NCBI GenBank assembly: GCA_000004985.1
Contig: GG738879.1
DNA length: 64,000 nucleotides
Reading direction: 5' to 3' (one strand)
Origin: Naegleria gruberi
Taxonomy: Eukaryota
Shown: positions 9,212-49,901 of the stretch, in pieces
Layout: each line of letters opens with the position of its first letter
Position numbering within the stretch: the first letter of the stretch is position 1
Position numbers and translations under genes: made by a program
The notes under the pieces: generated by a model
Database searches by the model: none
Told to the model about the DNA's origin: nothing
The model's input: the letters and a program-made list of their open reading frames with translations, nothing else

Positions 9212-9397
9212 AATGTTATATTTAGAATATATTTTTTATGATTATTTACCAAATTTGATGAATTGATTTAATTACGAAAAATACTATTAGTAATTTGTGT
9301 TATCTAACTCATGGAAATTTTACAAATATATTCTATTGTTGAATCATTGTTATGTACTATTTAAATGACTTTTTTATGGATAACCAATTTTCACAAC

Positions 9398-11455
9398 AAA
9401 ATGACTAGACAACAAATGCTAAACTCGAGTAAGCTTTCAAAGCTTGCTATATTATTATATTTGATTGTGACTATTGTGTTTGCCAACCTTGTACACAGTG
9501 ATGATAAATCTGAATTGAACATGGCTTACACTGTAGATCAGACGAATTACATTCCAACCTCAGTCTCGTATTCTAATTCTGCTAATAACAATGGTGCTTT
9601 AACCAAATCAAGCACAACCACTTACTATTCCTCTTCAACGTCTGGCTATCCATATGGAGGCGGGGCAGTTCCTATTGGTGCAGCACCAGTTGCACAACCT
9701 ATTTTACAACCTCAACAAGTGATTGTTAATCCACAACCAATTCCACAACCTATTCCTCAAACATATGCTCAACCAATTCCTCAACCATACCCACAACCTA
9801 TTCCACAAGGTGTTCCTATAGCAGGAGGGGCAGTTCCACAACCAATTCCTCAACCTATTCCACAAGCTGCTCCGTATGCTCAACCTCTTATTACTCAACA
9901 ACCTATTCCTCAACCTCTTCCATATGCAGGAGGAGGTGTTCCAATTGCAACAGGAGCCCCATATGCTCAACCTCTTCCATATGCAGGAGGTGGTGGTGTA
10001 ATTTATGGAGGTGGAGGTGGTGTTGTAGGTGGAGGTGTTGTTGCTCAACCAATTCCACAACAAGCTCCAATTATTTACTCTGGAGGTTGTAGTGTTTATG
10101 GAGGTGTTGGATGTGGAGGTACTATTCCACAACCTATTCCACAAGCTGTCCCTATTGCTCAACCTTTACCCCAACCTGTTCCTCAACCAATCTTGCAACC
10201 TATTCCACAAACTTATGCCCAACCTATTCCACAACCTCTTCCATATGCAGGAGGAGGCATTGTTTATGGTGGAGGTGGCGTAGTTTACGGAGGTGGAGGT
10301 GGTGTCATTGCTCAACCAATTCCACAACCAGCTCCAATTATTTACTCTGGTGGCTGTGACGTTTATGGAGGCGTTGGATGTGGAGGTGGTGGTGTAGTTT
10401 ATGGAGGTGGAGGTGGCGTAATTTATGGAGGTGGAGGTGGAGGTGGTGTAATTTATGGAGGTGGAGCTGTACCTATTCAACCATTTACAGTTGACACTGT
10501 TGCACCTGTATCCTTAGTGACATATCCTCAAACAGTGGTAGTGAGTCCACCTGTAACAGCAACACCTTGTACCACTGGTAAATGCTCTTCTGTGGATACC
10601 TACGTACCTAATGTTATAGTCCCAGCTTCAGCAGGTGTAGCAACACCTTGTACCACTGGCAAATGTTCTTCTGTGGACACCTACGTACCTAATGTTATTG
10701 TCCCAGCTTCAGCAGGTGTAGTAAGCGTTCCCCTCAAGAGTAATAATGTTGTTGTTGGATCTGGATCTACAACTGCTTCTACTTGTTTATTGACAGTAAG
10801 AGGATTGACCACATTAGCTCTTAGCCCATCCTCATCCATCTGTTCTTCAGTTGTCAATTGTATAATTACTTACATTTCAGATTATGTGCAATATGCTATC
10901 AATGCCCTCAATTACGACAGTAGCACTTCTCTCACTGTGAACTCTCAAGATGAGAATGTAGATTTGTGGAAGGCTTTAGAGAATATTGCTGGAAGTATTA
11001 GCGAAGATGGATATGGACCTGCAACAACTACAGCTTCAGCAACATCAGCTGCTTGCACCAATGATTTGGCTCCTGTTTTTGCCAGAACCTCTAAAGGTGG
11101 AGCAGTATTTGTTAATTCATGCTGGGCAAGAATGGCAAAGGCCTATCCACCATTTGTTCCAGTTACACTCAAACCTGGTTCTGTTTCTAGTGGAGGTCAA
11201 TTTGATTGGCCAGATGATGTTCAAAATCCAAACTATGTTGTTGCCAATTACTATGTATTGAGCGCTTTCAGATTGACAAACTTTGCCTTGTACTACTTTA
11301 GACCTTGTATGAGTGCAAGCACTTACACTGTTCTCTCTAATGCCCTACAATCTTTGAACGACATTTCAGCCTTAATAACTGCTGGCAATGTTACAAGAGC
11401 AAACGCCTTATTGAGTGATTTACAAAAAAGTTTGAGCACATTATCTAGTGCATAA
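9398..11455 (+). CDS. secreted repetitive Pro/Gly-rich protein (extracellular matrix or spore-coat-like), with a duplicated Cys-containing motif
   Basis: Signal-peptide-like N-terminus MTRQQMLNSSKLSKLAILLYLIVTIVFANLVHS; an alternative ATG lies at 9365. Long PIPQ(P/A) and YGGGGGV(V/I) repeats. PCTTGKCSSVDTYVPNVIVPASAGV occurs twice. Non-repetitive C-terminal ~250 aa. Confidence 0.55.
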   Translation, partial: KMTRQQMLNSSKLSKLAILLYLIVTIVFANLVHSDDKSELNMAYTVDQTNYIPTSVSYSNSANNNGALTKSSTTTYYSSSTSGYPYGGGAVPIGAAPVAQPILQPQQVIVNPQPIPQPIPQTYAQPIPQPYPQPIPQGVPIAGGAVPQPIPQPIPQAAPYAQPLITQQPIPQPLPYAGGGVPIATGAPYAQPLPYAGGGGVIYGGGGGVVGGGVVAQPIPQQAPIIYSGGCSVYGGVGCGGTIPQPIPQAVPIAQPLPQPVPQPILQPIPQTYAQPIPQPLPYAGGGIVYGGGGVVYGGGGGVIAQPIPQPAPIIYSGGCDVYGGVGCGGGGVVYGGGGGVIYGGGGGGGVIYGGGAVPIQPFTVDTVAPVSLVTYPQTVVVSPPVTATPCTTGKCSSVDTYVPNVIVPASAGVATPCTTGKCSSVDTYVPNVIVPASAGVVSVPLKSNNVVVGSGSTTASTCLLTVRGLTTLALSPSSSICSSVVNCIITYISDYVQYAINALNYDSSTSLTVNSQDENVDLWKALENIAGSISEDGYGPATTTASATSAACTNDLAPVFARTSKGGAVFVNSCWARMAKAYPPFVPVTLKPGSVSSGGQFDWPDDVQNPNYVVANYYVLSAFRLTNFALYYFRPCMSASTYTVLSNALQSLNDISALITAGNVTRANALLSDLQKSLSTLSSA
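9700..10470 (+). repeat. coding tandem repeats (degenerate 15-18 nt units for PIPQPx and GGGGVVYGG) inside the secreted-protein gene
   Basis: ccacaacctattcc/cctcaaccaattcc units repeated many times and ggaggtggaggtgg(t/c)gt(a/t)gtttatgga units. They open spurious ORFs in other frames and on the minus strand (9704..10162, 10029..10283, 10111..10359, 10166..10480). Confidence 0.7.
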
Positions 11456-11768
11456 GAGTGTCATTATATCTATAGAGTAGTTTCTTTATCTTCACCTAAG
11501 AGTAGTGTGATTGAGTATCTTTAAATTTTTGTGAATTGTAAATTCAAATAAAATTCAAACCAAATTTATTTCTTTTAAAAAATTATCATCACACAATGAA
11601 GCCATTTTCTCTCGCAAGAGGATTTAAACTTGGATGAAGTGATATGCTGAAGATAGGAGGTTCGGAACTTCAATCTTCTTATTCACACACTTCTTTATCA
11701 ACAATGAATCACAATGTTGAATCGTCCAGTTTGCTATGGACAGTCCAATAGAAAAATTCAGTAACACT

Positions 11769-14700
11769 TTACTTTTGTTTATGTTTGGACATGAAATGGT
11801 CAAAGCTTTGTCTCGACAATAGATCATGAACAGTGGTGGAGAGTCTAGATGAACGTGGAGAGGCTTCTCCTATTGTATGCTGTGGAGGAATATCAATGTT
11901 GATATGACCTTCTTGTTCTTTTGTTGTGTGTACGGAGGTTGTGGACTTTCTTCGGAAGGCACGATTCACAAAATCTGAAAATTTACTTCTTCTTCCACAG
12001 AGGAATAACTTATCTCCTTCCAAGAGGATGATGGATTGTCTTGGATGAGTATAAACATAATAGAAATCATTGTCAACTGACTCTAGAATGCCATTTACAA
12101 ATATTCTCTTGGGTCTGTAAAGTCCAATCAGAATCTTTTAGAGTGGTTTAGTGTACTTGATATAATTGAAACTTACTGTATTGGATATTTCACAAAGTTC
12201 TAGAAATACATCAATGGCTGCTCTACCAAAACAGTTTGGAGGACAATCTTCTTGAAATATAGAACTCTTGCTCATATTGCAGAGACCATCTAAGCTCATA
12301 TGCTCAATAATTTCATTCAACTTATCAGTGTAGAACGATTGAGCCAAAAGCTTAGGAATGAAACTAATTGGAAATATTCTACCACTTGAGTAAAGCTCAG
12401 ACAATAGACAGAACTGATCATACTCATCACTCTTGTCAGAAAGTGAATGTAATGGATCATCAAAGGCAACAGAGGCACTGCTAACATTACGGAATATTTT
12501 GAAAAGAGAGTGGTTCTCTCCATATTTCTTTGAAAAACATCCTCCTTGTTTTAGAAATTTGATATTCTTTTGGTTATTGAGCTCCATGATGAAGAATTTC
12601 TTGCTGTCTATATAGCTAATTGATTCTATGAGTTTGATAACTTCTGCATCCCTAAGGTATTCAGATGTGTCAATAAGATCGTCTGTGGCTTCATGAGAGT
12701 CACAATCATTTTCTGGTTTAGAATTGTGACCATGAGAGCCATATTGCCTGGATAGATAGACCACTGCTTCTGCATTTAACAAGCCACATCTGTGTAGGTC
12801 AAAAACGTCTGTTGCATTCCCTTTCAGAAAGAATACCTGATCAAAAAACTTGAGCCTGTCATATAGATAATCTACGTATGGATTGCCGTGAAGATTTGTA
12901 TGAGAGACCATAATAAGTATTGGAGTGAAATGTCTCTTTCTAATAGATCTTATTGTAGCTAAGATGACAAGAGGATATTTCAATTCTCCCACAAGTATGA
13001 TATGATTCTTTAACGAGCATGTACTAGAGAGAAGGAAAAAATCATTCTTTGGTCTAGCCTTGATGAGTAGATTGTAGTTTTCTAGAACACTTTGGTAAAA
13101 GTCATTAAGAAAGCGCTTGAAAGATACTCCAGAATCATCTAAATTCTTGTAAAAGAAAGTTGGAGGAGCTACTGACCTAAACAATCTCAATAGATATCCT
13201 TTGTTCATTTCAGTCTCTGAAACATGTGGAACATTTTTGATATCTATGATTTGCTTGTCTATACCTGACATGGTACTGACAAAAGATATGGGATTATCAA
13301 AGTCTGAACTATTGGTCAATATGGAAGGACTTTCAGCTTCTGGTGGAGTTTCAATATTTGAAGAAAAGGAAATATTGGATTGACTTGGACCTAGACTCTC
13401 AATGCATTTTTTGGAACCTCTTTTGGGTGGAAGTCCATGTCTTACTTTCAACACTTTTCTCCGAGTAGGAAGATATTTTGGTCTAGTTTCTACTTTTGGT
13501 TCATCCATTTCTTCGTTGATTGTCTTCTCATACGCGTTCTCCTCACTTACAAAGAATGTTTCAAAGGATTCCATGTCATTATTGTCATTTCGTGCTGGAG
13601 CTTCTTTCAAGTCTATTGGTTGTTGTGGAATATCTTGAGTATCTGCAGAGCTTGTTGAGTGTTTATCTGATTGGCTGTCGTCTTCTGCTTTAGCATTCTC
13701 AAAAAGGTAAACTAGGTTGGCATGAAACGTGCTCTGAGCAATCACGAATGCTTTGCATTTATCCACATGAATTATTTCATCAAAAGGATTCAATGATACA
13801 CTTTTTAGACTTTCATCATGATTATCCAAGTATTCCATGGCCAGTAAGGTGAGATCAAGATTCTCTCTGATGAAAACGACTGCCTTAATGAAGGTCATTC
13901 CTTCAAAAAATGGCGAGAATCTCACACAATATATTTCATTTCCTAGTCCGTCCAGATATTCAAATATCCACAGACTTTCAGCAGAAGTTACAGGATCTAA
14001 CTTCTTTTTAAGGAATGGAATCCAGGGCTTTTTCTTCTCTTGTTCCATAATCATCTTGTGGGTTTCAATGGCATTTCTAACATAGGTTGTCGTGACGAGA
14101 TTGATTAAGAGTGTACTAAATCCATGATATACAACACTCATACCCATAATCTTACTTGAAATAGTTTCTGTGCAAATAACTTGTTTGGCACCTGCTTTAT
14201 ACAAGTATGCTCTTGATTCAGGTAATGTCACTTGTGCATAAATATCCAGATCTGGATTAATATTTTTCAGACCAATAGTTGCCACCATTATTGACGTATC
14301 ATTATGTCTAGGATTAGAATGTTTAATACAATTGAGAAGGAACACAGAGTGAGCTTCATGAACTTTGATAATTCTACTCGTCTCATAATCCATCAAATCT
14401 CCATGGAAAACTAAAACCTTTTCTTGAAGGTATTGTCTCACTTTGATAACTTCCAAAATTGAATCACACAACTTCTTATTTCTGGAAACAACTTTGCAAT
14501 TGAAATTTTGGATGAGTATTGAACATGAAATAAGGTTGTAACTTACTCAAGGATTTTTTCGTATTCTTTCCATGCATTGAATGATAGAATTCTTTTAGAA
14601 AGTCCAATACATCTTGCTTGTGAAAGTATCCACAAACAATGACATGATTTTTCAAATTGGCATGTCGAGCTCTGAAAATTGCCTTTTCGCTTGTCGATAA

Positions 14701-15699
14701 TAACAAAGACAATTGATAGGGAATGAATGTAATTCCAACCAGAAAGCAGCCAATCGTCCAATATTTACTCGCAAAAGTAGTTGGAGAAATATCACCATAT
14801 CCAATGGTAGCCATGGTAATTACCATGAAATAGATTGAATCATCTTTACATAATATATTAAGGATGAAATACGTTTCAAAATACCTACGTAATGAAAGAA
14901 CATGTCCACCAAATAAGAATTCAATCATTTGAAAAGTTCCAGCAAACAAAACCATCAATGTAACAATTAATGCAATAAGACAAGCAATTTGTACTTGTAG
15001 AGTTGGTCCAAATCCAAAACTATTCTCCAAAACATAGTGTAGTATATTCCTCTTCCAAGTCAAGACAAAAACAATCCTCACCAATCGAATTAATCTGAAA
15101 ATTGAAATCATTACTGAAATGTTAAACATGTTCACATAGAGCATAATCTTCTGATCTCTATTCACCACCAACATTCTATCATTTTCCACACCATACGCAT
15201 GAATACAATAGATGATGTAAATACATAATGGAATCATTGGAACTACAGTTATAAAATCCAATATAGAGTTGGGATGAATCAAATAACGGAGTTTATGTTT
15301 GGTGAGGAGAAAGGAAACGAACCACAATGAAACAGTTATGGTACACAGTATCAAATCACAAATGAATATACTCTGCAACATGAATTGAATATGTTGATCC
15401 GAGAGTGAGAAGGAATTTTCAGGAGTTGGTCTTGATTGAGGATAAATTTGCGAATAGAAAACAAAATTTGTGTAAACGTCCGCAATGAAAATAACAAAAA
15501 AGAGAAAGGAAATTATCACCTGAAGAATTTCCATATCCAAAAAGTAACCATTATGTTTCATATAGTTTTTGATTTTGGATCGAAGACTGAGTTTTAGAGG
15601 TTTCGGCACGTTTGATGCATTGAAGAAGAATTCATTGTGATGATTGCCTTCTGTTGTTGGTGTTTTGCTTTGCTGTTGTTGAGTTGTTGGTGTAGTCAT
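11769..15699 (-). CDS. Slo/BK-type (large-conductance, RCK-domain) potassium channel; 3 exons, approx join(14547..15699,12177..14491,11769..12107)
   Basis: Pore/selectivity filter MATIGYGDISP. RCK1 start HVIVCGYFHKQDVLDFLKEFYH, which aligns to BK [22 protein letters not shown]. A downstream block LWIFEYLDGLGNEIYCVRFSPFFEGMTFIKAVVFIREN aligns to BK [23 protein letters not shown], and an RCK2-like HIILVGELKYPLVILATIRSIRKRHF is present. Exon 1 and 2 join over a GTAAGT intron of ~55 nt (14492..14546) in phase 1. Exon 2 and 3 join over a GTAAGT intron of ~69 nt (12108..12176) in phase 0. ATG at 15699 (context aattaaaATGact); an alternative in-frame ATG lies at 15744. Frames were checked against the ORF track. 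Confidence 0.75.
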
Positions 15700-16016
15700 T
15701 TTAATTCTTTTTATTAACAAATTCCTCAATAAGAAGGTAATCATTTCGATTGAAGAAGAAATAATTTTGCAATTTCGAAATTAGATTTGATTCTGAACTA
15801 AAAGGCTGATGATCTTTTTAACAAGATTCCCAAATGAATCATTCAAAAACTCTCCTAAAAACAATAAAATAGGTTGTATCAGTTTGAGAACTTTCGGATT
15901 ACATTTATTTCCAAATCACAAACAATCACAACATGATTCTCATTGAATGTCACACCATCGTAATCATTGGTAGCATGTTTCTCTCTAATTCACAAAGTAA
16001 CAACCTAAATTAAAAA

Positions 16017-17097
16017 ATGTCGATACATCGTTCTGGATCAAAGCCACTCATTGTTTCAGAGGCGTATGGCAGAAAGTTGACACCAACAACATCAAAAACC
16101 AACAATGAAGATAGTTTATCAGATTCTACTCCATATTTTGATGCTTCGGCAATTAAAGATTTTAATACTAAACCTAATAATAATGGAGGTGGATCAAATA
16201 ATAATAATGGGTCGTGGACTGATACAGTAGCAAGGAGATGGAAGAAATTTTCTAGTTGGACGATCGGAAATAGAAGATTAAAGATGTATATTTATTCAGT
16301 TCTAAAGGTAGGTTGTTGGAAAGGATAAACTAAACTAAATCACACGAAAGTTTGCTACTATTACATACGTTCAAGCAAATGACGTATTGGGCAAAGCTTC
16401 AAACACAAATAATCAAACAGAGAAGGATATGCAAATGGCATTCAAAGTTCTTTCATATCTATACATGGCTATTTTAATTTTACTTTTCACTTTCAGATAT
16501 GTTAGAGAATTGATTGCAATTTCCAGGAAGAAACCTCTTTCAATTTGGGTAAACTGGATTGAATCATCTGTTTTTTTAACCTATATTTGCTATTCGATTG
16601 TTACTTCTGTCATTCACGTTGTTTACATTACAAAACACTACAATGCTGAATATGAAGAAAGATTATTGCATCCAGAGAATTTTGCTTACAAAACAGTTAC
16701 ACTTGAGGAAGAGTTGGCAGTGGAAATTTTGGAAGTTTTTGTTCACTTGTACATCATCTTTGATAAGTCAACGCATTACCTACATGCAGGACACAGTGTT
16801 TCTCTATATTTGGCTAAAGCTCAGCATATTCCAAAGAATGCTCATCCAGGGCATGATCAAAATCAAAACCATTATCATGATGCCTTCGATCATCATGCTC
16901 ATCTTTACACAAATCAATCTGAAACTGATGACGAAGAAAAGAGTGATGAAGTATATGATGATTTTATTGGAAAACCAAAAGAAGCCACAAAACCAACAAC
17001 AAGAAGACACACCGTTATGGCAATGACACCACCAAGACAAAATATTGATTCTGAAATTTTATTGGAAGAGCCAAGATTGGCATTTAATAAGTTTTAA
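16017..17097 (+). CDS. hypothetical membrane protein, probably 2 exons, approx join(16017..16307,16351..17097)
   Basis: Exon 1 ORF ends at a GTAGGT donor (16308). An in-frame acceptor follows at ...cacgaaag|ttt (16350); an alternative acceptor is at ...gggcaaag|ctt (16395). Exon 2 has 3 hydrophobic segments (MAILILLFTFRYV, VFLTYICYSIVTSVIHVVYI) and a His/Asp/Glu-rich tail. No family recognised. Confidence 0.4.
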
Positions 17098-20870: not shown

Positions 20871-22727
20871 TTAGTAGAAAGCACTTTGAGGTCGTGGATT
20901 AGGAATAATTTCTTTTGATTCAAAATACGTAACCATTTGTTTGGGTATTTCAGCTAGCACTTCAGAAGCTAATTGTGTTAAATCAGAACATTCAGAAAAG
21001 CTCACAAATTGAACAATGTCTCTTGTCATTTTAGTTCCATTACTGTGAATGAGTGGTTCATCATCAGCATCGAATTTTCTACAACTTGGGAAACTTCTAC
21101 CACCAATACCAACAATTACAATTGAGATAGGTTTGTCATTGGCCTCTATAATTGAATCGATTGTGCCTTGCATGTCAAATGCATCCCCATCAATAATTAA
21201 CAATAGAATATTGTAGAATTGTTGTTGTTGAGTAACAGGAGGAGTTCTCTCAACGACATGTTCAATAACTCTATAAAAGTCATCTCCTCGATAAGGCTTT
21301 CCAGTTTTTGGATTAGTGGCACTTCCCATATCTCCAAATGATAGTCTTGGAACTGCCTTCTCATATGCTTCAAGTATTTCTCCTACACAAAGTTCCTCCT
21401 TATCTGAGAGTGACAGATTAAACATTGGATTCATTTTTAATTCCTTATCTATCCTTGCACCATATCCATATGCTTTCGAATAATTAGTGAAAGTGTTAAA
21501 AGTCAAATACTTACCACCATATATCTTGTCAGAATCATAAGGTTCCAAAATTTGCAAAACTTGTGCAAGGGCTTGTTGATAGTGATTCTTCTTGGAACTT
21601 AAATAATGGAGGGAGCTACTACTGGTGAAACCACCGTTTGATGCAGTAAAATCAATGCCAACTGATACTGAAATGTTACATCCTCCCATAATGTGGTCTA
21701 AAAATTGATCTTGGCGGTTTTCCTTCCTGGCAACAAAGGATTGGTAGATTTGATATTCTGGATTTGGTACTGGAACATGTTCTATCTGAATAGTACATAT
21801 TTCAAACTCAAACACTCCAGAGTTTTTGTAATTCTTCTTTTTTTTTTGAAGGGATGGCTCAATTAAATGGAATTGTTTTACATTATTATTCAGAACTTGG
21901 TCCAAATTATATTTAAATTCTCCAATTAAATCATCCTTCGAGTACTTGTCCTTGTCATAGCATGTCACAAATATATCCTTGTTGTAATCATTGTTGAATT
22001 CATCTAAATTGAGTTTAAAGGATGTCCAAGAAGGGTTCAGATTCTTATAGATAACTTCACTTGTGTAGAGTTTGACTCTTCTTCCAGCAACTTCCTTTTC
22101 AAAGAAAAAGTAACAATCTGACTTTCCAAAGAAATCCTTCTTATCTAATCCAATACCTTTACATTTGAATAGAACTACTTTCATATCTGAATTAACAGTA
22201 GTTGGTATCTCAGAACGTAGAGCATTCAATTCAGCCGAGCTCATACCAGAAAATTTCAAAGTGGCATTCCTTTCAGAATCAGCATTATTAGTGTTATTCG
22301 AATCCGATTGCCTAACAACCTTCTCAACATGAACAAAGACCTCACCTTGTACTTTCCCACTCTTCAAAACAAGATCTAACTTTAATTTACCATCCCTCGA
22401 GCAAACAGCTTGTGATAATGAAAACTCTCTAGTTTTGCCAATAAGCTCACTCTTATTTCCACCATCGTCATCATAGATTTCAATATAAAATTTCTGTACG
22501 CACTCAAAATAATAATGAACACTAAACTTGGTCTTGAACACTGGATTATGATTATTCTGAATTGTTTCGGTATTGCCCAGAAACGTGAATTTATCAACAC
22601 CACCCGATGATGAACTTGTGTTACTTTCGTACAGTTTAGCAAACGGATCAGACTTGGACATCAAGTCCATTCTAGCCAAATTGCAACATGATAAATAAAT
22701 ATCAACAGATTCTCTGGCGGAATTCAT
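20871..22727 (-). CDS. copine (two N-terminal C2 domains plus a C-terminal vWA-like copine domain)
   Basis: 618-aa single ORF. Copine N-terminal signature ...LSCCNLARMDLMSKSDPFAKLY, a second C2 (KVVLFKCKGIGLDKKDFFGKSDCYFFF), and a vWA/copine core ISVSVGIDFTASNG...QYQQALAQV...LLLIIDGDAFD. Confidence 0.85.
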   Translation of the reverse strand: MNSARESVDIYLSCCNLARMDLMSKSDPFAKLYESNTSSSSGGVDKFTFLGNTETIQNNHNPVFKTKFSVHYYFECVQKFYIEIYDDDGGNKSELIGKTREFSLSQAVCSRDGKLKLDLVLKSGKVQGEVFVHVEKVVRQSDSNNTNNADSERNATLKFSGMSSAELNALRSEIPTTVNSDMKVVLFKCKGIGLDKKDFFGKSDCYFFFEKEVAGRRVKLYTSEVIYKNLNPSWTSFKLNLDEFNNDYNKDIFVTCYDKDKYSKDDLIGEFKYNLDQVLNNNVKQFHLIEPSLQKKKKNYKNSGVFEFEICTIQIEHVPVPNPEYQIYQSFVARKENRQDQFLDHIMGGCNISVSVGIDFTASNGGFTSSSSLHYLSSKKNHYQQALAQVLQILEPYDSDKIYGGKYLTFNTFTNYSKAYGYGARIDKELKMNPMFNLSLSDKEELCVGEILEAYEKAVPRLSFGDMGSATNPKTGKPYRGDDFYRVIEHVVERTPPVTQQQQFYNILLLIIDGDAFDMQGTIDSIIEANDKPISIVIVGIGGRSFPSCRKFDADDEPLIHSNGTKMTRDIVQFVSFSECSDLTQLASEVLAEIPKQMVTYFESKEIIPNPRPQSAFY

Positions 22728-23117: not shown

Positions 23118-24485
<1,368 letters not shown>

Positions 24486-25573: not shown

Positions 25574-26966
25574 TTACAATTCCCAATCATCATCACTTTC
25601 CTCATCTTCACTGGAATATTCAATATTACCACGACGAAGTTCCATAATACCTGCAATCTTGGCTGCCAAATTGTTTTGATCACTTTCAGCCATATTCTTG
25701 AATTCTGGTAAATCTTCTTGCTTTACATTTCTCAATTTCTTATTTTTAATTTCAGAAAGCATGTCAACACCACCTGAGGCACCACTATCAGAATCAGTTG
25801 TTGGACTTGCAACAGATACTCTAGGCTTAACAGAGTGATCGACAACTGGTGGAGGAGGAACATTGGTTGGTGGAGGAGGTACAAAACCACCAACTCCAAT
25901 GGCACTTGAGCCAGAAGGAGCATTTGAGCTAGCTCCCTTGAAAGGAGGTGGTGGAGGGGTTGATCTAGTTCCTGGGGTTGGTGGAGGTTGTGGTCTTCCA
26001 CTTGGAACATCCAAAGAAGGAGGTGGGGGAGCATCTGATGTGACAGTGACAAGTGTCTTCATTAAAAATTTGGCAGTTTTCTTATCTTTCAATTCAGCTT
26101 CTGAAATGCCTGCCTTCTCAAATATGGTTTTTAGCTCTTGGGGTATTTCTGTAAATCCACTTTTTGGATCAAAACCAATGTGTGAAACGTGTTTAAACTT
26201 GTCAACCTTTGGTCCAGAAATTTTGATTTGTGACCGGTCAGGAATTTGGTCCTTATTCTTTGTTCCGAAAATCTTGGAGAATAAACCACCTCCACTACTG
26301 CTACTACCTCCACTACTGCTATTGCTAGGAGTGTGTTTCTTTTCAGGTTCCTTATGGGAAGAAGTAGTATGTACAGAGCTACTGGCAGCAATTGAAGTAT
26401 TGACAGCTGTTGGCTTGTTAGCAACTGGTGGAGGAGTGGATGGAGGAGGATTAGTCTTCTTCACTGGAGTAGGTGGGGCAGTACTGGAACCAGTACCAGT
26501 TGGTGAAGAAGAAGAAGAATCAGAACTGTCACTTCTCATATTAACAGAAGGTTTAGTTGAAGGCAAACTTGGAGTTGAACCACCATTGATAGAACCAGTT
26601 GCTTTCAAACGAATGAGTTGACAAACTTGCTTGGCAAATTGATCAGCATCAAATCTTTCAGCAAATAACAATCCAACAAAACCTTCATCAGATTCGAATG
26701 CATGAAAATTGGAAGAAAGTGTTTGATAGTCGAAACCTTCATAACATTCTTGTTCCATAGTAACTGATTTACTCTTCAAATCTACCAACCGAATCATTAC
26801 TACTGATTGCTTTTCAACCAATGTAACTGTCAAAATTCCATAAGAATTGGCATATGACCATTGATTACCATTGTTGGCTTTGTAGAGACGAACTGGTGCA
26901 GAATACTTGATTTCGAAAATGTTTGGTAAAGACAAGACACCTGCAGCGAGTTGTACAGCACGTTTA
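25574..26966 (-). CDS. WASP-family actin nucleation-promoting factor (WH1/EVH1, CRIB/GBD, proline-rich, WH2, acidic tail); main exon, with a short 5' exon unresolved
   Basis: The WH1 region SAPVRLYKANNGNQWSYANSYGILTVTLVEKQSVVMIRLVDLKSKS aligns to Dictyostelium WasA SAVVQLYMALPNSNPSSWSLKYTGVVSFVSD...IRLFDLKTGS. CRIB motif ISGPKVDKFKHVSHIGFDPKSGF, poly-Pro tracts, WH2 LSEIKNKKLRNVKQ and the acidic end SEDEESDDDWEL are all present. The open frame runs upstream to an acceptor at ~26966 (cttgaag|t) with no ATG. One candidate 5' exon is only ATGGA at ~27062-27066, which is speculative. Confidence 0.75.
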
Positions 26967-39570: not shown

Positions 39571-40575
39571 TAAATACATCATTCCCATCACCTCATTCCA
39601 GTGTTGTATTCATGAAATTTCTCAATCACTTGATGAATAATTTTCACGTGAAATCTTGCATTATCCTAGGCAATTAATATCACCAAATATGGTCATATTT
39701 TTGGTAGTGACATAATTTCAAAAGCACATTTTTTTGCAGTCCAAAGCGAAAAACTCAAAAAGCATTTTTCAACGTATTTGTATGCATCGCTTCGGAGAGA
39801 TGAACATGTGAGAGAACAAATCCATGTGCCTTATTAAAATTGTTCTGTTTTAACCTCCTTAATGAGCCTATAACTGTAGATTCGTTTTACAAGTTTTCAA
39901 ATCGTTTTTTGCATCCTTCTCGAAATGTTGGTGTTGTATAGATTTTTATCCTTCACACATGTGTGATCATCAGTTTGATTGTCAAATGTTACAGCAATTG
40001 TTTAACTATTTTATTTGACAATCTCACAAATTGAATTAATGAGCTTATTTCGAAGTTATTAAATTCACCGAGATGAAGAATCATCATTTTAAAAAGGTGC
40101 CTCATTAACAAACTCAATATCTATTCGAATCAAACGATCGATACAATCTAACAACAACCAATTAATTGTAAGGACCAATTATACATGACGATACAGTTCT
40201 TTTGATTCTCAATCTTGTTTCCTAAAGAGATAACATCCCAACTGCTCTACCTTTTACAAAACAGAGTTTTACTGTGGTGATTGTTTGTTCGCCTCTTTTG
40301 TCCAAAAACGTTTTTCGCCGTGTTTTTTTGGTCAGCCAAAATACAAACAAACAAATAGATGGCAATAAAAGCAGTTTCTTTTGGAGAATATCATCATAGC
40401 ACTATAAAAAACAACGAAACAACTCACTCTCTGGTGACAAAGACGACCACAACTCTCTATTCTCTCACTGCATCATCTCTCTCTAATTGTTATAGTCCCT
40501 CATCATTTCTCATCGTTCATCATCAGCAGAGCAGTGTTCCCAATCATCAGTAACACCACATCATCAGAGAATCTA

Positions 40576-41907
40576 ATGTCCTCACCAACAACTCACTCTA
40601 GTACATCTGGCACTAGCGATGAAGCCATGCCAAATGGAAATCCTAACGATTGTACTTGTCCTACAAATATTAATAATAACATTGTTGGTTCCACTATTAT
40701 TGATGAAGAACTCATCAGGAGAATTGAGGAGGCTCATCAGAATGACCCTAAAATTATTCAATGTTGTAGTACCAATGAAAAGACTGATATTAAACCAATG
40801 CAACAAACCCATGCATTTGAGCAAAAGGAGCTCGATAGAACTCAACAATTACTTGAAACGGCCCTCATTTCTATTATCCAAAAGTATCAAGCACCAAAAC
40901 AAGAACAACAACCAATTATACCAACACCTCTCCCTGTTACTTTACCTCTACCAATAACTATTAATCCACCTAATGTTCTTCAAGATATGATGTGTGCTGC
41001 AGGTGAAAAGAAGGCTAAAGAATCACTTGATCAAGTAATTATCTTGTCATTACTATCCGGTGTTTTTGTTGGTTTTGGTGGTATTGCCTCAATGAAAACT
41101 GGTGGCAGTATGGCCGGATGGGATGCTACCAATCCAGGTTTTGGAAGACTGATCTTCTCAGGTGTTTTTACTGTCGGTTTAATGTTGGTTATTGTTGCAG
41201 GAAGTGAATTATTTACTAGTAATAGTATGGTTATGTTTGTTGCCATGTTGAGAAGAAAGGTTAATGCTTGGCAATTGTGCAAGAATTTGGTTATTTCTCT
41301 CACTTTTAACGTTTTGGGCGCTTTTATTATTTGTTACTTTTTAATGTATTTACCAACTACAGAAAAGGAAATGCACACGGCTCCATTTGTTACGTATGCC
41401 AAATCTCTCGGTGAAAAGAAAGTTTCTCGTTCTCATGGTCTTACTATTCTCTTGGGTATTGGTTGCAATTGGTTGGTTTGTCTTGCTGTCTACATGACCT
41501 ATGCTTCACATATTCTGGTTGACAAATTGATTGCCTTATTCATGCCAATTTTGGCCTTTGTTGCTGGTGGTTTTGAACATTCAGTTGCAAATGGCTTCTT
41601 TATTCCATTAGCAATGTTATACGGTAGTCCAATTACCATGTACGATTTTTTGGTTACCAACTTGATGCCTGCCACACTGGGTAACTTGCTTGGTGGTGCC
41701 TTCTTTGTTGGTATGTGTTTCTGGTACACTCATGGTGTTAGACTTGAAAATATTTACTACTTTGATACCAAATTTACCTTAAAGGCAAGAGAAACTATTG
41801 CTAGACCAATTTTGAATTTGTGGGATAGGGTTGCTGCTCTCAACCCATTCCTCAAGCAAGAAAATCAAGCTCAATCTGCTATTGAGCTTGCTGATCAAAA
41901 AGTGTAA
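40576..41907 (+). CDS. formate/nitrite transporter (FNT) family channel with an ~160-aa N-terminal extension
   Basis: FNT core LLSGVFVGFGGIASM...GSELFTSNSMVMFVAML...GCNWLVCLAVYMTYAS...FVAGGFEHSVANGFFIPLAMLYG, with the characteristic GxELFTGN and GFEHSVANMF-like motifs. First ATG in a good context at 40576 (aatctaATGtcc). The ORF-track start 40534 is a GTG. Confidence 0.8.
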   Translation: MSSPTTHSSTSGTSDEAMPNGNPNDCTCPTNINNNIVGSTIIDEELIRRIEEAHQNDPKIIQCCSTNEKTDIKPMQQTHAFEQKELDRTQQLLETALISIIQKYQAPKQEQQPIIPTPLPVTLPLPITINPPNVLQDMMCAAGEKKAKESLDQVIILSLLSGVFVGFGGIASMKTGGSMAGWDATNPGFGRLIFSGVFTVGLMLVIVAGSELFTSNSMVMFVAMLRRKVNAWQLCKNLVISLTFNVLGAFIICYFLMYLPTTEKEMHTAPFVTYAKSLGEKKVSRSHGLTILLGIGCNWLVCLAVYMTYASHILVDKLIALFMPILAFVAGGFEHSVANGFFIPLAMLYGSPITMYDFLVTNLMPATLGNLLGGAFFVGMCFWYTHGVRLENIYYFDTKFTLKARETIARPILNLWDRVAALNPFLKQENQAQSAIELADQKV

Positions 41908-43488: not shown

Positions 43489-44997
43489 TTAAATAATGAC
43501 ATTTCCATTTTCTTCGATACTTCTCCACATTTCATTACTCTCCTTACAGAGGAATCCTCTCTTTTCATTAATCTTGATATATTTCGTACCAAGTTTGAGG
43601 AAACTCTTTGCTCTATCTTTCAATATAGTCTTCACTACACCTCTTGGAATATTTCCTTTGAAATCCAAATAGAAAATCTGAGAGTAACGACATGTATTCT
43701 CATCGATTGCCTGGAATGCCCAACCACCCATTGAAACTGCTCTGACTACGCCCTTCTTTGGTTCACTTGGTGCCTTATTTGTTACACAACTCTTCTTACC
43801 AATATAGTAAGTATTGGTTGATGTATCAAATACACCACTGGATGAGACAATAAATTCTCTTGGATTGAATGGCCAAACTAATTTGTAAATTTCTCTTGTC
43901 ACTGAAGAGGCCATCAATGAAGAACCAGTTACTGGTCCATCTGTTGCCTTCTTTTCAACATAATTCAATTGTTCAATTTCACACAAATTACCATCATATT
44001 GCAATCTGTATTCCTTTTCAAAAATTGTATTCATAACATGCTTAATATTAAATGGAAAGGTACAATCAAATTTGAAGAAATTCAACCCAATTGACTCTCC
44101 CATATCATAACTCTTTTTTGAAAAGTAACATTTGTGATGTTTGCTACTTCCAATCACTTCCCATTCGTTAGGATCATAATTTGAGAGTTGCATCTTTAAG
44201 AACTTGAAATCGTTAATGCTGAAACTTTCATTTTTCAAATCACCCAAAGATTCTACATAGAATAATTGAGAATCTTCTTTAACACTACCAATTTCGTATA
44301 AAACTTTCAATGGTTGAGTTTTAAGATAGGTTTTAAAGTAATCACTCTCAAGAAAACTCTTGAAATTATTCTCTTTTAAGCTTAGCAAGACCGATGATTC
44401 AACTTCATCAAATAAATTCTTTGGACAATTGAGACCGTTTGTAGAATTTGATGATAAATTTGAAGCAGAATAATCTGTTGTTGGAGATTTACATCTATTT
44501 GCTATGGTAGAAACACTTTCCGAACTCACTGATGCGGAATCTGTACTGTTAGTTGAATCGAGTGAGTGTCTGGAGACGAAAGGAACAGGTGACCCATTCG
44601 ATTGTGGACTATTTGGATTGTTATTGTTAGCATTACCTCCTGTTGAAGTTCTAGCAGAAACGATTGAAATTGGTGAAGAAGAAACATTATCTGGATTGAG
44701 AACCTTTTGAATCTTGTTTCGAATATCACCTCTCAAGTTTAGTTGTGTATTTGCACCTTCGGCAATAAACCTCTCAAACAAGTCGTGTGCCATTTGAAAT
44801 CTCTTTCTTTCATGTTTAACTTTTCTGTATTCATTTACACATTCTAAAAATTGACAACTTTCTCCATTGAAAGTGGCGCCAAGGTATCCTGTGAAACATT
44901 TAACAGTTGGAGGATGGTCAAAGATAGCTTCAAAATAAATAACGAATTGGTCAATGTCTTGGTCGACAATGAGTCTATCTTTATCATTGAATGACAT
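43489..44997 (-). CDS. RGS-domain (N-terminal) plus START lipid-binding domain (C-terminal) protein
   Basis: N-terminal FVIYFEAIFDHPPTVKCFTGYLGATFNGESCQFLECVNEYRKVKHERKRFQMAHDLFERFIAEGANTQLNL is RGS-like. The C-terminal ~220 aa (WEVIGSSKHHKCYFSK...YRLQYDGNLCEIEQLNYVEKK...WPFNPREFIVSSSGVFD...RAVSMGGWAFQAIDENTCRYSQIFYLDFKGNIPRGVVKTILKDRAKSFLKL) is START-like. A Ser/Asn-rich linker separates them. ATG at 44997. Confidence 0.6.
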   Translation of the reverse strand: MSFNDKDRLIVDQDIDQFVIYFEAIFDHPPTVKCFTGYLGATFNGESCQFLECVNEYRKVKHERKRFQMAHDLFERFIAEGANTQLNLRGDIRNKIQKVLNPDNVSSSPISIVSARTSTGGNANNNNPNSPQSNGSPVPFVSRHSLDSTNSTDSASVSSESVSTIANRCKSPTTDYSASNLSSNSTNGLNCPKNLFDEVESSVLLSLKENNFKSFLESDYFKTYLKTQPLKVLYEIGSVKEDSQLFYVESLGDLKNESFSINDFKFLKMQLSNYDPNEWEVIGSSKHHKCYFSKKSYDMGESIGLNFFKFDCTFPFNIKHVMNTIFEKEYRLQYDGNLCEIEQLNYVEKKATDGPVTGSSLMASSVTREIYKLVWPFNPREFIVSSSGVFDTSTNTYYIGKKSCVTNKAPSEPKKGVVRAVSMGGWAFQAIDENTCRYSQIFYLDFKGNIPRGVVKTILKDRAKSFLKLGTKYIKINEKRGFLCKESNEMWRSIEENGNVII

Positions 44998-47365: not shown

Positions 47366-49901
47366 TTATTTCTCATTAAGAGCTAAGGTAATATCCATAA
47401 ATGATCGTTCACCAGTTGTGGAATCAGCAACATTCTTCAAATTGGATGCTCTTTCTTTCAAATCATCAACAAATTTAAGATTGGAAAAGCAAATTGATGG
47501 ACCATCATTATGCTCATTCTCATCTTCACAAGAGGCAGCCATTGAAATAGCTTCGGTTTTCCATTCAGAGATTCTACATTTGAGAACATCAACTTTGGCA
47601 ATCATATTCTCATATTGCCTGCTTTTTAGTTGATCCCTTATGTCAATTAGTGAGTCGTGTAATTCCTTTTGAATGTTATTAGCTTCAGACCACTCTGTTT
47701 CAAGAGTATACACTTCTGTTGGTTTGCTCTTTCCCTTAAGTTTAACAACATCGACGAATAGACAGAGGAACTTTGTTTTAGCTTGTTCATATGTTGATTG
47801 ACCAATCAAAACAGTAGTTTCATATCTCTTATTAAGAGTTTCCAATCTACCCGCAGTATTGACGCTATCTCCAATAGCTGTATAGTTGAATCTTTCCTTA
47901 GAACCTACGTTTCCTATCATGGCATTACCTGAATTCACACCAACTCTAATTCTGAGGTCCGGCCAATTTTCTGCCTTACAACGAATCCTCAACTTTTCGA
48001 TTGCAACAAGTGCATCTAGGGCTGCTTGACATGATTTGTTTTGGTGATCATCTAGCTGTTTGAGAGGGTGAGAGAATAGAGCCATCACACCATCACCAAT
48101 GAATTTGTCTATTACGCCTCCATTTGATTCAACAGCTTCTGTCATTATTCTGAAATATTCTGAGAGGACTTTGAGTAATACTGAAACAGTTGATGATTCT
48201 GAAAAGGTTGTGAAATCAGCAACATCACTGAATAGAATTGATGTTGAGCAATTCACGACGCCTAATTTAGCTCCGATGCCATTTCTCACAATATCTTTAA
48301 CAATATCTTTTGGAATATATTTCATGAAGGAATGAAGAGAATTCTTGACTAATTTCGTTGATTGTTGCAACAAATCTAATTCATACACAACCTTTAAAAG
48401 CTTTGAGGTTTTAACTTCTTCCACTTCCAATTTAGAAATTTTGCTCATATCCTTGGAGACTTTCAAAATAGAACGAGTAATTAATTGAGTGACAATCATG
48501 GCTAAAACAGTTCCAAAAATAATGAAAATAATGGATAGAGATAATAGAGCTGGATCACTTGTCATTACTGTCTTGACAAATCCATAATTTACGGTTGCTT
48601 GAATAATTATCCAATCTAAACCATGATCATCCTTGATAAATTGTACAGATACTCTGTATTGATCTATCTTGAGAATTATGGTAGAGTTATCAGACGAGAG
48701 GGTTGCCATATCTCCATTTGGTCCAATTATTATTTTCTGACTCATTAGGTAATCCGAAATCTTTGAAAAGACACTTGTTGTTTGATTCATATGTACTCTA
48801 TTATTATTGGCATCTCTAGTTTCATAACCCATACTTGTACTAATCAAATAACCTGTTCTCTCAATAATTACAATGTCAATGGATTTAGTTTGGATATCAA
48901 GGTTAGCCTGAATAGTTTCATTAAGGATATAGTCCAATTGATACAAGTCATAATGGGCCCCAATAATCTCTACTACAGATTGTTTTGTGTATGTACCATT
49001 ACTGAGCTGTGTCATGTTATAATTATCATAATCCAAAGTTGTAGCAGCTCCCAGAGATAGGCATTTGATGAAGAAATTATTAAAGACAGTTGACCATTGA
49101 TAGCTTGGATAAGGCGCCTTCAATCCTGCCTTATACCATGGTCTAATTGTTGGATCATAATTCGGAATTCTCATTGATTCTGTAACTGGTTCATAATAGG
49201 TATTATATGAAGAAATTACAACCTCTGCTTGTGGATTTCTAATTTGAACATAATGTCTCGAATTTGAACCTTCTACAGCAATATAATTTTTCATTGAATT
49301 TCCATAATAGAGAATGGTGGTTTGAGGAAATGCAAGCTTTCAAATAGTTATTAGTACTTTTGAATAGTTTGAAAACGAACCTTTGTTGGTGCAAACACTC
49401 TAATGACTCTTTTAACCAAGCCATCAAGATCAAATGGAAGCATATCACCATCCATTCTCCTCTGTAACATAAAACCTTCTCTTATCTGATGAAGAATGGT
49501 CGAAGCTTGACCCATATGATTCTTAATTTCTTCAGAAATATTATCCTCTCTAATACTTGCAATATCATTGATGGATTTTTCTCCACTGTTTACAAAAAAG
49601 TAAGTTGGCAATTAGTACATTTATAAACTAACCTTGAATAAATCAATAATAATAATGAACCAATACAAATAAAGGTCTGTAACAAAAATACAATAATGAG
49701 AATGTTTTGTAATGAATGAAATGCTGGACAAAAGAATTGAATAAATCGCCTTGACGCACTCTTGTTTTCCTTATTGAATGCCATTACAGCACCAATCGAC
49801 GTGTCAGAAAACGATGAATGCATTGATGAGGATTGAGTGTCTGATGATGCAGCACCAATGAATTTGTTATCTGGATCTACGGTGATAGGTTGAATTCTCA
49901 T
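47366..49901 (-). CDS. receptor-type class III adenylyl/guanylyl cyclase with an extracellular sensor domain (Dictyostelium ACG-like); 3 exons, join(49633..49901,49381..49585,47366..49336), about 814 aa
   Basis: ATG at 49901 (agaaaaaaaATGaga). TM1 IIVFLLQTFICIGSLLLLIY. Extracellular region of ~330 aa. TM2 LLSLSIIFIIFGTVLAMIVTQLI. Cyclase core FSDVADFTTFSE...IDKFIGDGVMALFSHP...RIRVGVNSGNAMIGNVGSKERFNYTAIGDSVNTAGRLE, then a coiled C-terminal tail. Introns of 47 nt (donor GTTAGT) and 44 nt (donor GTTCGT) are in phases 2 and 0, consistent with ORFs 49590..49901, 49351..49611 and 47366..49294. Confidence 0.8.

Follow-up and report, generated by a model that had tools for sequence, protein, structure and literature searches.

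A gene for a Slo-like potassium channel with tandem RCK domains predicted in the genome of Naegleria gruberi

Slo-like (KCa1-like) channels have been documented in apicomplexans and kinetoplastids (PMC3283738), and a study of Marchantia lists them in Dictyostelium discoideum (three genes), Acanthamoeba, chytrids and Mucoromycota, as well as in Capsaspora, Salpingoeca, red and green algae and non-flowering plants; no Discoba were sampled there (10.1101/2021.06.01.446568). Naegleria was outside the scope of the paper in which Prole and Marrion (2012) described the KCa1-like channels of parasitic protozoa (PMC3283738), and our search for literature linking Naegleria with Slo, BK or potassium channels found nothing relevant. 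In this study, a stretch of 64,000 nucleotides (nt) of the N. gruberi genome (GCA_000004985.1, contig GG738879.1; hereafter the window) was analyzed. At 11769..15699 on its minus strand we found a single gene whose product is very probably a K+ channel subunit of the Slo-like family, which occurs across eukaryotes; the protein would belong to a clade of Heterolobosea and would not be an orthologue of Slo1, Slo2 or Slo3. A preliminary description of this DNA had assigned the gene to an amoebozoan, a social amoeba. The source is N. gruberi NEG-M (Heterolobosea, Discoba), with whose proteins six open reading frames (ORFs) of the window are identical. The rarity outside animals that the description implied is contradicted by the published lists, which already include protozoa, Dictyostelium, Acanthamoeba, fungi, algae and plants; since the Dictyostelium genes had been listed, a genuine social-amoeba homologue would not be new. 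Its link to calcium-dependent chemotaxis is speculation and found no support. What is added here is one more member, apparently unannotated, of an established family, in an organism already used as a model.

The nearest full-length proteins are C9374_010176 of N. lovaniensis and FDP41_009970 of N. fowleri ('Potassium channel domain-containing protein'), with 44-45% identity over 98-99% of the query; ABK040_007400 of Willaertia magna follows with 37-41%. These orthologues are single proteins of 1338-1430 amino acids (aa) and have in common with the window protein the six-segment core, the two RCKs, the S4 motif, an insertion in the calcium-bowl region and a C-terminal SFDxFMSKHK. Compared with them, the N. 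gruberi protein has 15 aa inserted in the S1-S2 loop; its N-terminus is shorter and its linker differs.

Animal Slo1, the BK channel (KCNMA1; 5tj6, 6v22 and 7pxe), resembles the window protein in the filter, the voltage-sensor-like domain, the junction that leads from S6 to the HxxVCG motif of RCK1, the order RCK1-linker-RCK2, the paired motifs FACG/YSSG and YVITNP/YVYTHP, and the gating ring (Foldseek E = 1e-20). Unlike Slo1, the window protein lacks S0, the E321/E324 ring, D367, E374 and E399; its calcium bowl is interrupted, its S4 is more Kv-like, its identity to Slo1 is ~14-25%, and it lies outside the Slo1 clade. In animal Slo2, S4 is uncharged and gating is by Na+ and Cl-. The window protein is like Slo2 (KCNT1/2, Slack/Slick; 5u70, 8hir) in having no S0 and in template modelling (TM) scores of 0.51-0.53, slightly above those to Slo1; unlike Slo2, it has three S4 arginines, its pore and RCK1 score higher to Slo1, and it clustered with Slo2 in 0/100 bootstrap replicates.

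Outside animals, the only recorded SLO channel is Marchantia MpBK2a, which is voltage- and pH-sensitive and Ca2+-insensitive (10.1101/2021.06.01.446568). It shares with the window protein a voltage-sensor domain, tandem RCKs, an extended linker and poorly conserved Ca2+ ligands, whereas the S0-like helix reported for it is missing from the window protein, and the D-E-x-D remnant that the latter keeps is set against almost no calcium-bowl residues reported for MpBK2a. The protozoan KCa1-like channels are similar in their charged fourth segment, their RCK tails and a ligand that is unpredictable from sequence (PMC3283738). Prokaryotic MthK/Kch channels share homology in the pore and RCK1 (36 bits, E = 1e-8); each MthK chain has a single RCK and two transmembrane segments, and soluble RCKs complete the ring, whereas the window protein has two RCKs and six segments.

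Gene model and introns

Three long minus-strand ORFs (14476..15744, 12138..14471 and 11769..12023) were found at the locus. When joined through GT..AG introns, they gave a frame open from the ATG at 15699 to the TAA ending at 11769, and the coordinates 11769-15699 of the preliminary description are therefore exact. Exons 15699..14889, 14843..14547, 14491..12177 and 12134..11769, which would encode 1262 aa, probably represent the gene, and this four-exon model is preferred; retention of the 45-nt intron would give 1277 aa. The features are as follows.

11769..15699, minus strand: whole coding region of the Slo-like channel; 4 exons, 1262 aa; collinear over its full length with N. lovaniensis C9374_010176 and N. 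fowleri FDP41_009970
14889..15699, minus strand: exon 1, N-terminus and S1-S5, from the reading of the strand and the spliced model
14844..14888, minus strand: probable intron 1, 45 nt, GTAGGT...AAAG, in frame and stop-free, in the S5-pore turret, by comparison
14547..14843, minus strand: exon 2, pore helix, filter, S6, S6-RCK1 linker, and beta-A and alpha-A of RCK1
14492..14546, minus strand: intron 2, 55 nt, GTAAGT...AAAG, frame-shifting; junction KKSL/IVSRNKK
12177..14491, minus strand: exon 3, remaining RCK1, disordered linker and most of RCK2
12135..12176, minus strand: intron 3, 42 nt, GTAAGT...AAAG; junction EISNT/ILIGLYRPKR
11769..12134, minus strand: exon 4, end of RCK2, C-terminal tail and stop codon; FYYVYTHP aligns with Slo1 RYVITNP

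The junction at intron 2 reads KKALIVSRNK in the N. lovaniensis and N. fowleri orthologues, and the HMMER alignment runs unbroken across it into Slo1 strand beta-B (VEIVFLHK). The junction at intron 3 corresponds to LILLALYRPKR in the orthologues. Among the aligned orthologues, N. gruberi alone would carry 15 extra residues directly before the pore helix, and excision of 14888..14844 brought the length into exact agreement with three of them. With these 45 nt removed, Ion_trans_2 scored 46.1 bits instead of 36.1, and the profile was covered at 3-74 instead of 27-74. The GTA.GT...AAAG end motifs match those of introns 2 and 3, and the 15-aa translation had the lowest confidence in the predicted membrane domain, with a predicted local distance difference test score (pLDDT) of ~53. 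Hence, of what the preliminary description said on splicing, its two introns (55 and 42 nt) stand, on the collinearity with orthologues and on divergence, while a likely third one, 14888..14844, had been overlooked.

Three other splice sites were considered and rejected. For intron 2, the acceptor CCAG at 14483/14482 leads to the wrong frame and an early stop, whereas AAAG at 14493/14492 agrees with both frame and orthologues; for intron 3, the acceptor TTACAG at 12107 likewise gives the wrong frame and an early stop. The donor GTAAGT at 13550 sits within the conserved motif FFVSEENAYE.

A metagenome contig (L001; ENA ERZ929261, k127_536208) aligned to window 14746..11300 with 97.5% identity and carries the same neighbouring gene. 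It spans introns 2 and 3, not the 45-nt intron 1. The difference from the window was 1.6, 1.4 and 4.5% at codon positions 1, 2 and 3, respectively, 7.3% in intron 2, and 9.5% in intron 3, in which a 1-nt indel was also observed; the sole indel in an exon is an in-frame 9-nt deletion in the RCK1-RCK2 linker. This pattern across codon positions, introns and indels argues for a functional coding gene with real introns. The gene is judged to be single, intact and under purifying selection, and introns 2 and 3 to be real. Other contigs of the same sample (PRJEB11402) encode proteins identical or near-identical to those of window ORFs; the sample contains a very close relative of N. gruberi NEG-M.

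Further candidates for short introns of the form GTA[AG]GT...AAAG were seen in the window at 16308..16350 (plus strand, 43 nt), where one would link ORFs 16017..16328 and 16387..17097 in frame, and at 21473..21514 (minus strand, 42 nt), in frame within the copine ORF 20871..22727. Anyone who reads the N. gruberi genome by its ORFs may repeatedly be misled by in-frame introns of 42-45 nt.

Predicted architecture and ligand-site residues

The domains of the predicted protein were assigned by hydropathy, Pfam, matches to the PDB, and AlphaFold2 (AF2) models searched with Foldseek.

15064..15528, minus strand: S1-S4 voltage-sensor-like domain, residues 58-212, by hydropathy and AF2; no hydrophobic S0 upstream
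15064..15120, minus strand: S4 ISVMISIFRLIRLVRIVFV; R202, R205 and R208 at every third position, invariant in three Naegleria species
14791..14808, minus strand: selectivity filter TIGYGD (residues 283-288; TMATIGYGD), by translation and Pfam
14698..14754, minus strand: S6, residues 301-319, ...GITFIPYQLSLLL; no acid at the Slo1 E321/E324 positions
13692..14649, minus strand: RCK1, residues ~336-636, span includes intron 2, by Pfam, PDB Slo1 match (E = 1.5e-24), AF2 and Foldseek
13200..13691, minus strand: RCK1-RCK2 linker, residues ~637-800, Ser/Glu/Pro/Asp-rich, poorly conserved and predicted disordered (pLDDT 27-44)
11991..13199, minus strand: RCK2, residues ~801-1189, span includes intron 3, by Pfam (29.1 bits), weak Slo2.2 matches in the PDB, and Foldseek alignment of ~750-825 columns to complete gating rings of Slo1, Slo2.2 and Slo3
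12381..12596, minus strand: calcium-bowl-equivalent region, residues 1002-1073, FFIMELNNQKNIKFLKQ against Slo1 ITELVNDxNVQFLD, by sequence alignment

Hydropathy gave six segments, at residues 58-76, 110-128, 145-163, 194-212, 238-256 and 301-319, and no S0 segment within residues 1-57, where the maximum window score was -0.07. The AF2 transmembrane model agreed with this, with helices S1-S6 at pLDDT 84-96, no S0, and a low-confidence coil (pLDDT <50) for residues 1-27. Within one alignment, S0 is present in animal Slo1 and absent from the heteroloboseans. S4 reads FRLIRLVRIVF, a Kv-like RxxRxxR motif whose R202, R205 and R208 were also invariant in a further alignment (A2); D115 in S2 and D148 in S3, the acidic partners, are conserved. 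The TIGYGD filter of the preliminary description was found in place at 14791..14808. At the inner mouth, FIPYQLSLLL has no acidic residue at the E321/E324 positions, which are occupied by Q/L or Y/S, in both the HMMER and the MAFFT alignments. In BK, this charge ring gives up to half of the outward conductance (PMC4319557). Since neither S0 nor the ring is found, a cytoplasmic N-terminus is expected, and there is no reason to expect a 'big' conductance.

For the cytoplasmic part, the Pfam profiles BK_channel_a (PF03493; 66.4 bits, cut-off 26.8) and Slo-like_RCK (PF22614; 65.8 bits, cut-off 24) were matched; TrkA_N scored 30.2 bits and, in the membrane domain, Ion_trans_2 36-46 bits (46.1 on the spliced model), above its cut-off. 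The C-terminal 474 residues by themselves scored 29.1 bits with Slo-like_RCK against the cut-off of 24, and the chain therefore contains two RCK domains, as the preliminary description had claimed. Scores of this size are far from what chance would produce. Its claim that the S6-RCK1 junction is alignable with metazoan BK was borne out as well: HVIVCGYFHKQDVLDFLKEFYH follows directly after S6 and is aligned by HMMER to Aplysia Slo1.

Among sequences in the PDB, Slo1 of Aplysia, Drosophila and human matched best (E = 1.5e-24 to 1e-17, up to 89 bits), followed by Slo2.2 (65 bits), MthK and Shaker (~27 bits). When the RCK2 sequence alone was used, the sole match was Slo2.2 (E = 0.003). The inputs of AF2 were unspliced translations, and the transmembrane model consequently keeps the 15-aa intron translation. 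For the exon-3 translation, the mean pLDDT was 67.7, with folded parts at 80-93 and the linker and two loops below 50. When this gating-ring model was searched against the PDB, the top 50 Foldseek matches were all Slo1, Slo2.2 or Slo3 (E = 2.5e-20 to 5e-14), with alignments of 720-830 columns and query-normalised TM-scores of 0.45-0.53. The transmembrane model (mean pLDDT 79.7) matched Slo1 and Slo2.2 best and then HCN and Kv channels. These results on predicted folds confirm the tandem RCK; the Slo subfamilies are not told apart by them.

The residues known to function in Slo1 (list from PMC4319557) were then located in the alignments. At the RCK1 Ca2+ site, D367 is replaced by Met360, while E535 corresponds to the conserved E555. 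Both residues of the Mg2+ site, E374 and E399, are aligned to Leu. Of the H+ sensors, H365 corresponds to the conserved H358 and H394 is not conserved. In the calcium-bowl region, ELNNQKNIKFLKQ is aligned with ELVNDxNVQFLD; an insertion of ~40 residues follows, and then SDKSDEYDQF...YSSG against QDDDDDPDTE...FACG. The insertion is conserved in four close orthologues and had low AF2 confidence. D1058, E1059 and D1061 stand opposite D894, D895 and D897 of Slo1 (D-E-x-D), and the poly-Asp run is absent. The D897 position is Asn in N. fowleri and N. lovaniensis, and the related heteroloboseans have DEYN, EEHE, DDID and SDFE at the D-E-x-D positions. Thus the acidic patch noticed in the preliminary description exists (SDKSDEYDQ), but it is placed after the ~40-residue insertion and would be a remnant rather than a calcium bowl. 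Only the E535 equivalent and the D-E-x-D remnant would survive of the Slo1 Ca2+ ligands.

Relatives and alternative readings

Word-indexed homologue searches, with the single protein or with a six-sequence profile, returned 6-7 proteins. An exhaustive phmmer search of 1.84 billion cluster representatives with the exon-3 translation (771 aa) gave 377 proteins at E <= 1e-3, 39 at E <= 1e-10 and 8 at E <= 1e-30. The relatives include Willaertia magna KAL9641723.1, N. fowleri FDP41_009059 (UniRef 'BK channel') and two Percolomonas proteins, chytrids (Podochytrium, Zopfochytrium), Calcarisporiella, Guillardia and Hondaea, and the animal Slo1 of Acanthaster, Tubulanus and Dicrocoelium. An N. gruberi protein for 15699..11769 was not returned by the word-indexed or the exhaustive HMMER searches, though the neighbours were present. 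The only annotated Slo-like protein of N. gruberi is NAEGRDRAFT_62424 (P0034), which has 706 aa, starts in the middle of RCK1 and is devoid of a pore; its identity to residues 454-1145 of FDP41_009059 (1290 aa) is 42%, and it looks like a shortened model of a second Slo-like paralogue, the orthologue of FDP41_009059. With this second gene, Naegleria would have at least two Slo-like paralogues.

A neighbour-joining tree with 100 bootstraps was built from 74 full-length sequences aligned over the span between pore helix and C-terminus (682 columns with >=70% occupancy), and residues 166-1044 of human Slo2.2 were added to the existing alignment. The heterolobosean clade, whose other members are from N. 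fowleri, N. lovaniensis, Willaertia and Percolomonas, and the animal Slo1 clade were each recovered in 100/100 replicates; the window protein was grouped with its N. fowleri, N. lovaniensis and Willaertia relatives in 83/100, and with the paralogue in 100/100. Heterolobosea were sister to Slo1 in 1/100 replicates and grouped with the fungal and human Slo2 set in 0/100. The distances of the window protein to Slo1 (2.33-2.37) and to Slo2.2 (2.40) were equal and saturated. Against KCNT1, a fungal protein (P0132) scored 240 bits and the window protein 65 bits. Placement with single-RCK prokaryotic channels had been set beforehand as the outcome that would speak against a Slo channel; the protein has two RCKs and scored 36 bits with MthK against 89 bits with Slo1. 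These comparisons point to a Heterolobosea-specific branch of the Slo-like family, clearly apart from the single-RCK prokaryotic channels.

The preliminary description called the protein a full-length Slo/BK-type channel. Full-length, tandem-RCK and Slo-type in a single gene it is predicted to be; BK in the strict sense is not supported, as S0, the charge ring, D367, E374/E399 and the contiguous bowl are either changed or missing. A true BK (Slo1) orthologue, with large conductance and activation by Ca2+ and voltage, would agree with Slo1 as the best PDB match (89 bits against 65 for Slo2.2), with the E535 equivalent and the three S4 arginines, and with E1059 and D1061 aligned with D895 and D897, an acidic character that recurs in the heterolobosean relatives. 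It is set against the Met and Leu residues at the Ca2+ and Mg2+ sites, the missing S0 and E321/E324, the bowl split by ~40 aa, and Asn for D897 in two Naegleria; moreover, RCK2 alone matches Slo2.2, and the grouping with Slo1 occurred in one bootstrap replicate. We thus consider Slo1 orthology quite improbable. A channel that is Slo-like but insensitive to Ca2+, gated by voltage and pH or by voltage alone, like Marchantia MpBK2a or mammalian Slo3, would be a sub-case of the preferred reading and is a serious possibility, though not the favoured one. Most Slo1 Ca2+ and Mg2+ ligands are missing, the proton sensor H365 is conserved as H358, and MpBK2a, the recorded non-animal precedent, behaves in this way; Slo-like genes also tend towards organisms with flagellated cells, and Naegleria makes flagellates. 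However, D-E-x-D and the E535 equivalent, which are nearly all lost in MpBK2a, are kept, and the H394 equivalent is not conserved. As a rough estimate, we would give one-third of the weight to Ca2+, one-third to pH or voltage only, and the remainder to other ligands.

A pseudogene, or two adjacent genes for a pore protein and a soluble RCK protein, would account for the lack of an N. gruberi protein for this locus in a collection that has all its neighbours. However, 1262 codons are open after removal of three consensus introns, third-position and intron divergence from L001 is ~3- to 6-fold above that of positions 1 and 2, the orthologues in three heteroloboseans are single proteins, and RCK1 would be severed between alpha-A and beta-B if the locus were split at intron 2. 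It is plausible that models were missed or shortened, since very short introns defeat gene callers, and NAEGRDRAFT_62424 is also truncated. We regard this alternative as the least probable of all, and a single gene is supported because full-length orthologues exist and because intron 2 lies inside the RCK1 Rossmann fold.

Several points weigh against the preferred reading, a heterolobosean Slo-like channel subunit from one gene. The channel is known here from sequence comparison and predicted structure. Voltage dependence is deduced from the S4 sequence, and of the three arginines in the S4 of Slo1, a single one carries gating charge (PMC4319557). Distances at the deep nodes of the tree are at saturation (1.7-2.4), neighbour joining was the only method, and Slo2.2 was added afterwards; for these reasons, a placement with neither Slo1 nor Slo2 does not exclude either. 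The AF2 alignments were shallow (33-35 sequences), and the ring model is without beta-A/alpha-A of RCK1 and the last strands of RCK2. Intron 1 (14888..14844) is probable by comparison only. There are also two candidate start codons, at 15699 and at 15744, the latter an in-frame ATG that would add 15 aa.

By homology to the solved structures of Slo1 and Slo2.2, four subunits would form the pore, and their eight RCK domains would assemble in the cytoplasm into a gating ring exerting a pull on S6. Voltage, through S4, and an intracellular ligand, through the ring, would then jointly control the efflux of K+. The ligand may be Ca2+; H+, or no ligand as in Marchantia SLO, would be equally possible.

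Neighbouring genes and significance

The alpha-tubulin ORF at 23124..24485 (plus strand) is intronless and identical to TBA1_NAEGR, and another five ORFs match the N. gruberi NEG-M proteins EFC42449.1, EFC42540.1, EFC42541.1, EFC42456.1 and EFC42458.1 exactly, all of them on a single contig of 384,281 bp. In N. lovaniensis and N. fowleri, the channel orthologue shares its contig with an alpha-tubulin gene 17-19 locus tags away, suggesting a loose synteny of the two genes. The convergent neighbour of the channel gene, 9365..11455 (plus strand), is EFC42449.1, a Pro/Gly-rich protein of 696 aa with PIPQP and GGGVVYGGGG repeats and a hydrophobic stretch, LAILLYLIVTIVFA, near its N-terminus (residues ~27-40); this block has 45-48% GC against ~33% around it. 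Further genes were recognized with Pfam.

20871..22727: copine (C2 and Copine)
25574..26935: WH1 and PBD (WASP-like) protein
40534..41907: formate/nitrite transporter
43489..44997: RGS protein
47366..49294: adenylate/guanylate cyclase-domain protein

By exact look-up in the collection, no identical protein was found for the unspliced copine ORF, although its neighbours are in the collection, or for an FHA ORF, probably because the annotated models are spliced.

Slo-like channels would be under-counted in proteome-based surveys of N. gruberi, because this gene is apparently absent from its protein set and the paralogue is there only as a truncated model. The annotation gap was probably caused by the introns of 42-55 nt, one of them in frame. 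The N. fowleri orthologue could conceivably be a drug target, an idea on which nothing here bears directly. More speculatively, and with some doubt on our part, the heterolobosean channels may be a third ancient Slo lineage, apart from the Slo1/3-like and Slo2-like ones, in which a Kv-like charged S4 is combined with the lack of S0 and with an enlarged loop at the calcium bowl; it would be near the ancestral eukaryotic form and possibly different in ligand specificity. If so, Naegleria would be a tractable amoeboflagellate for studying the role of Slo channels before there were animals, for example in the amoeba-to-flagellate switch. The gene provides an example of a Slo-like channel without S0 and with a canonical S4, and it would add Discoba to the lineages with tandem-RCK Slo-like channels, which is consistent with an early eukaryotic origin of the family.

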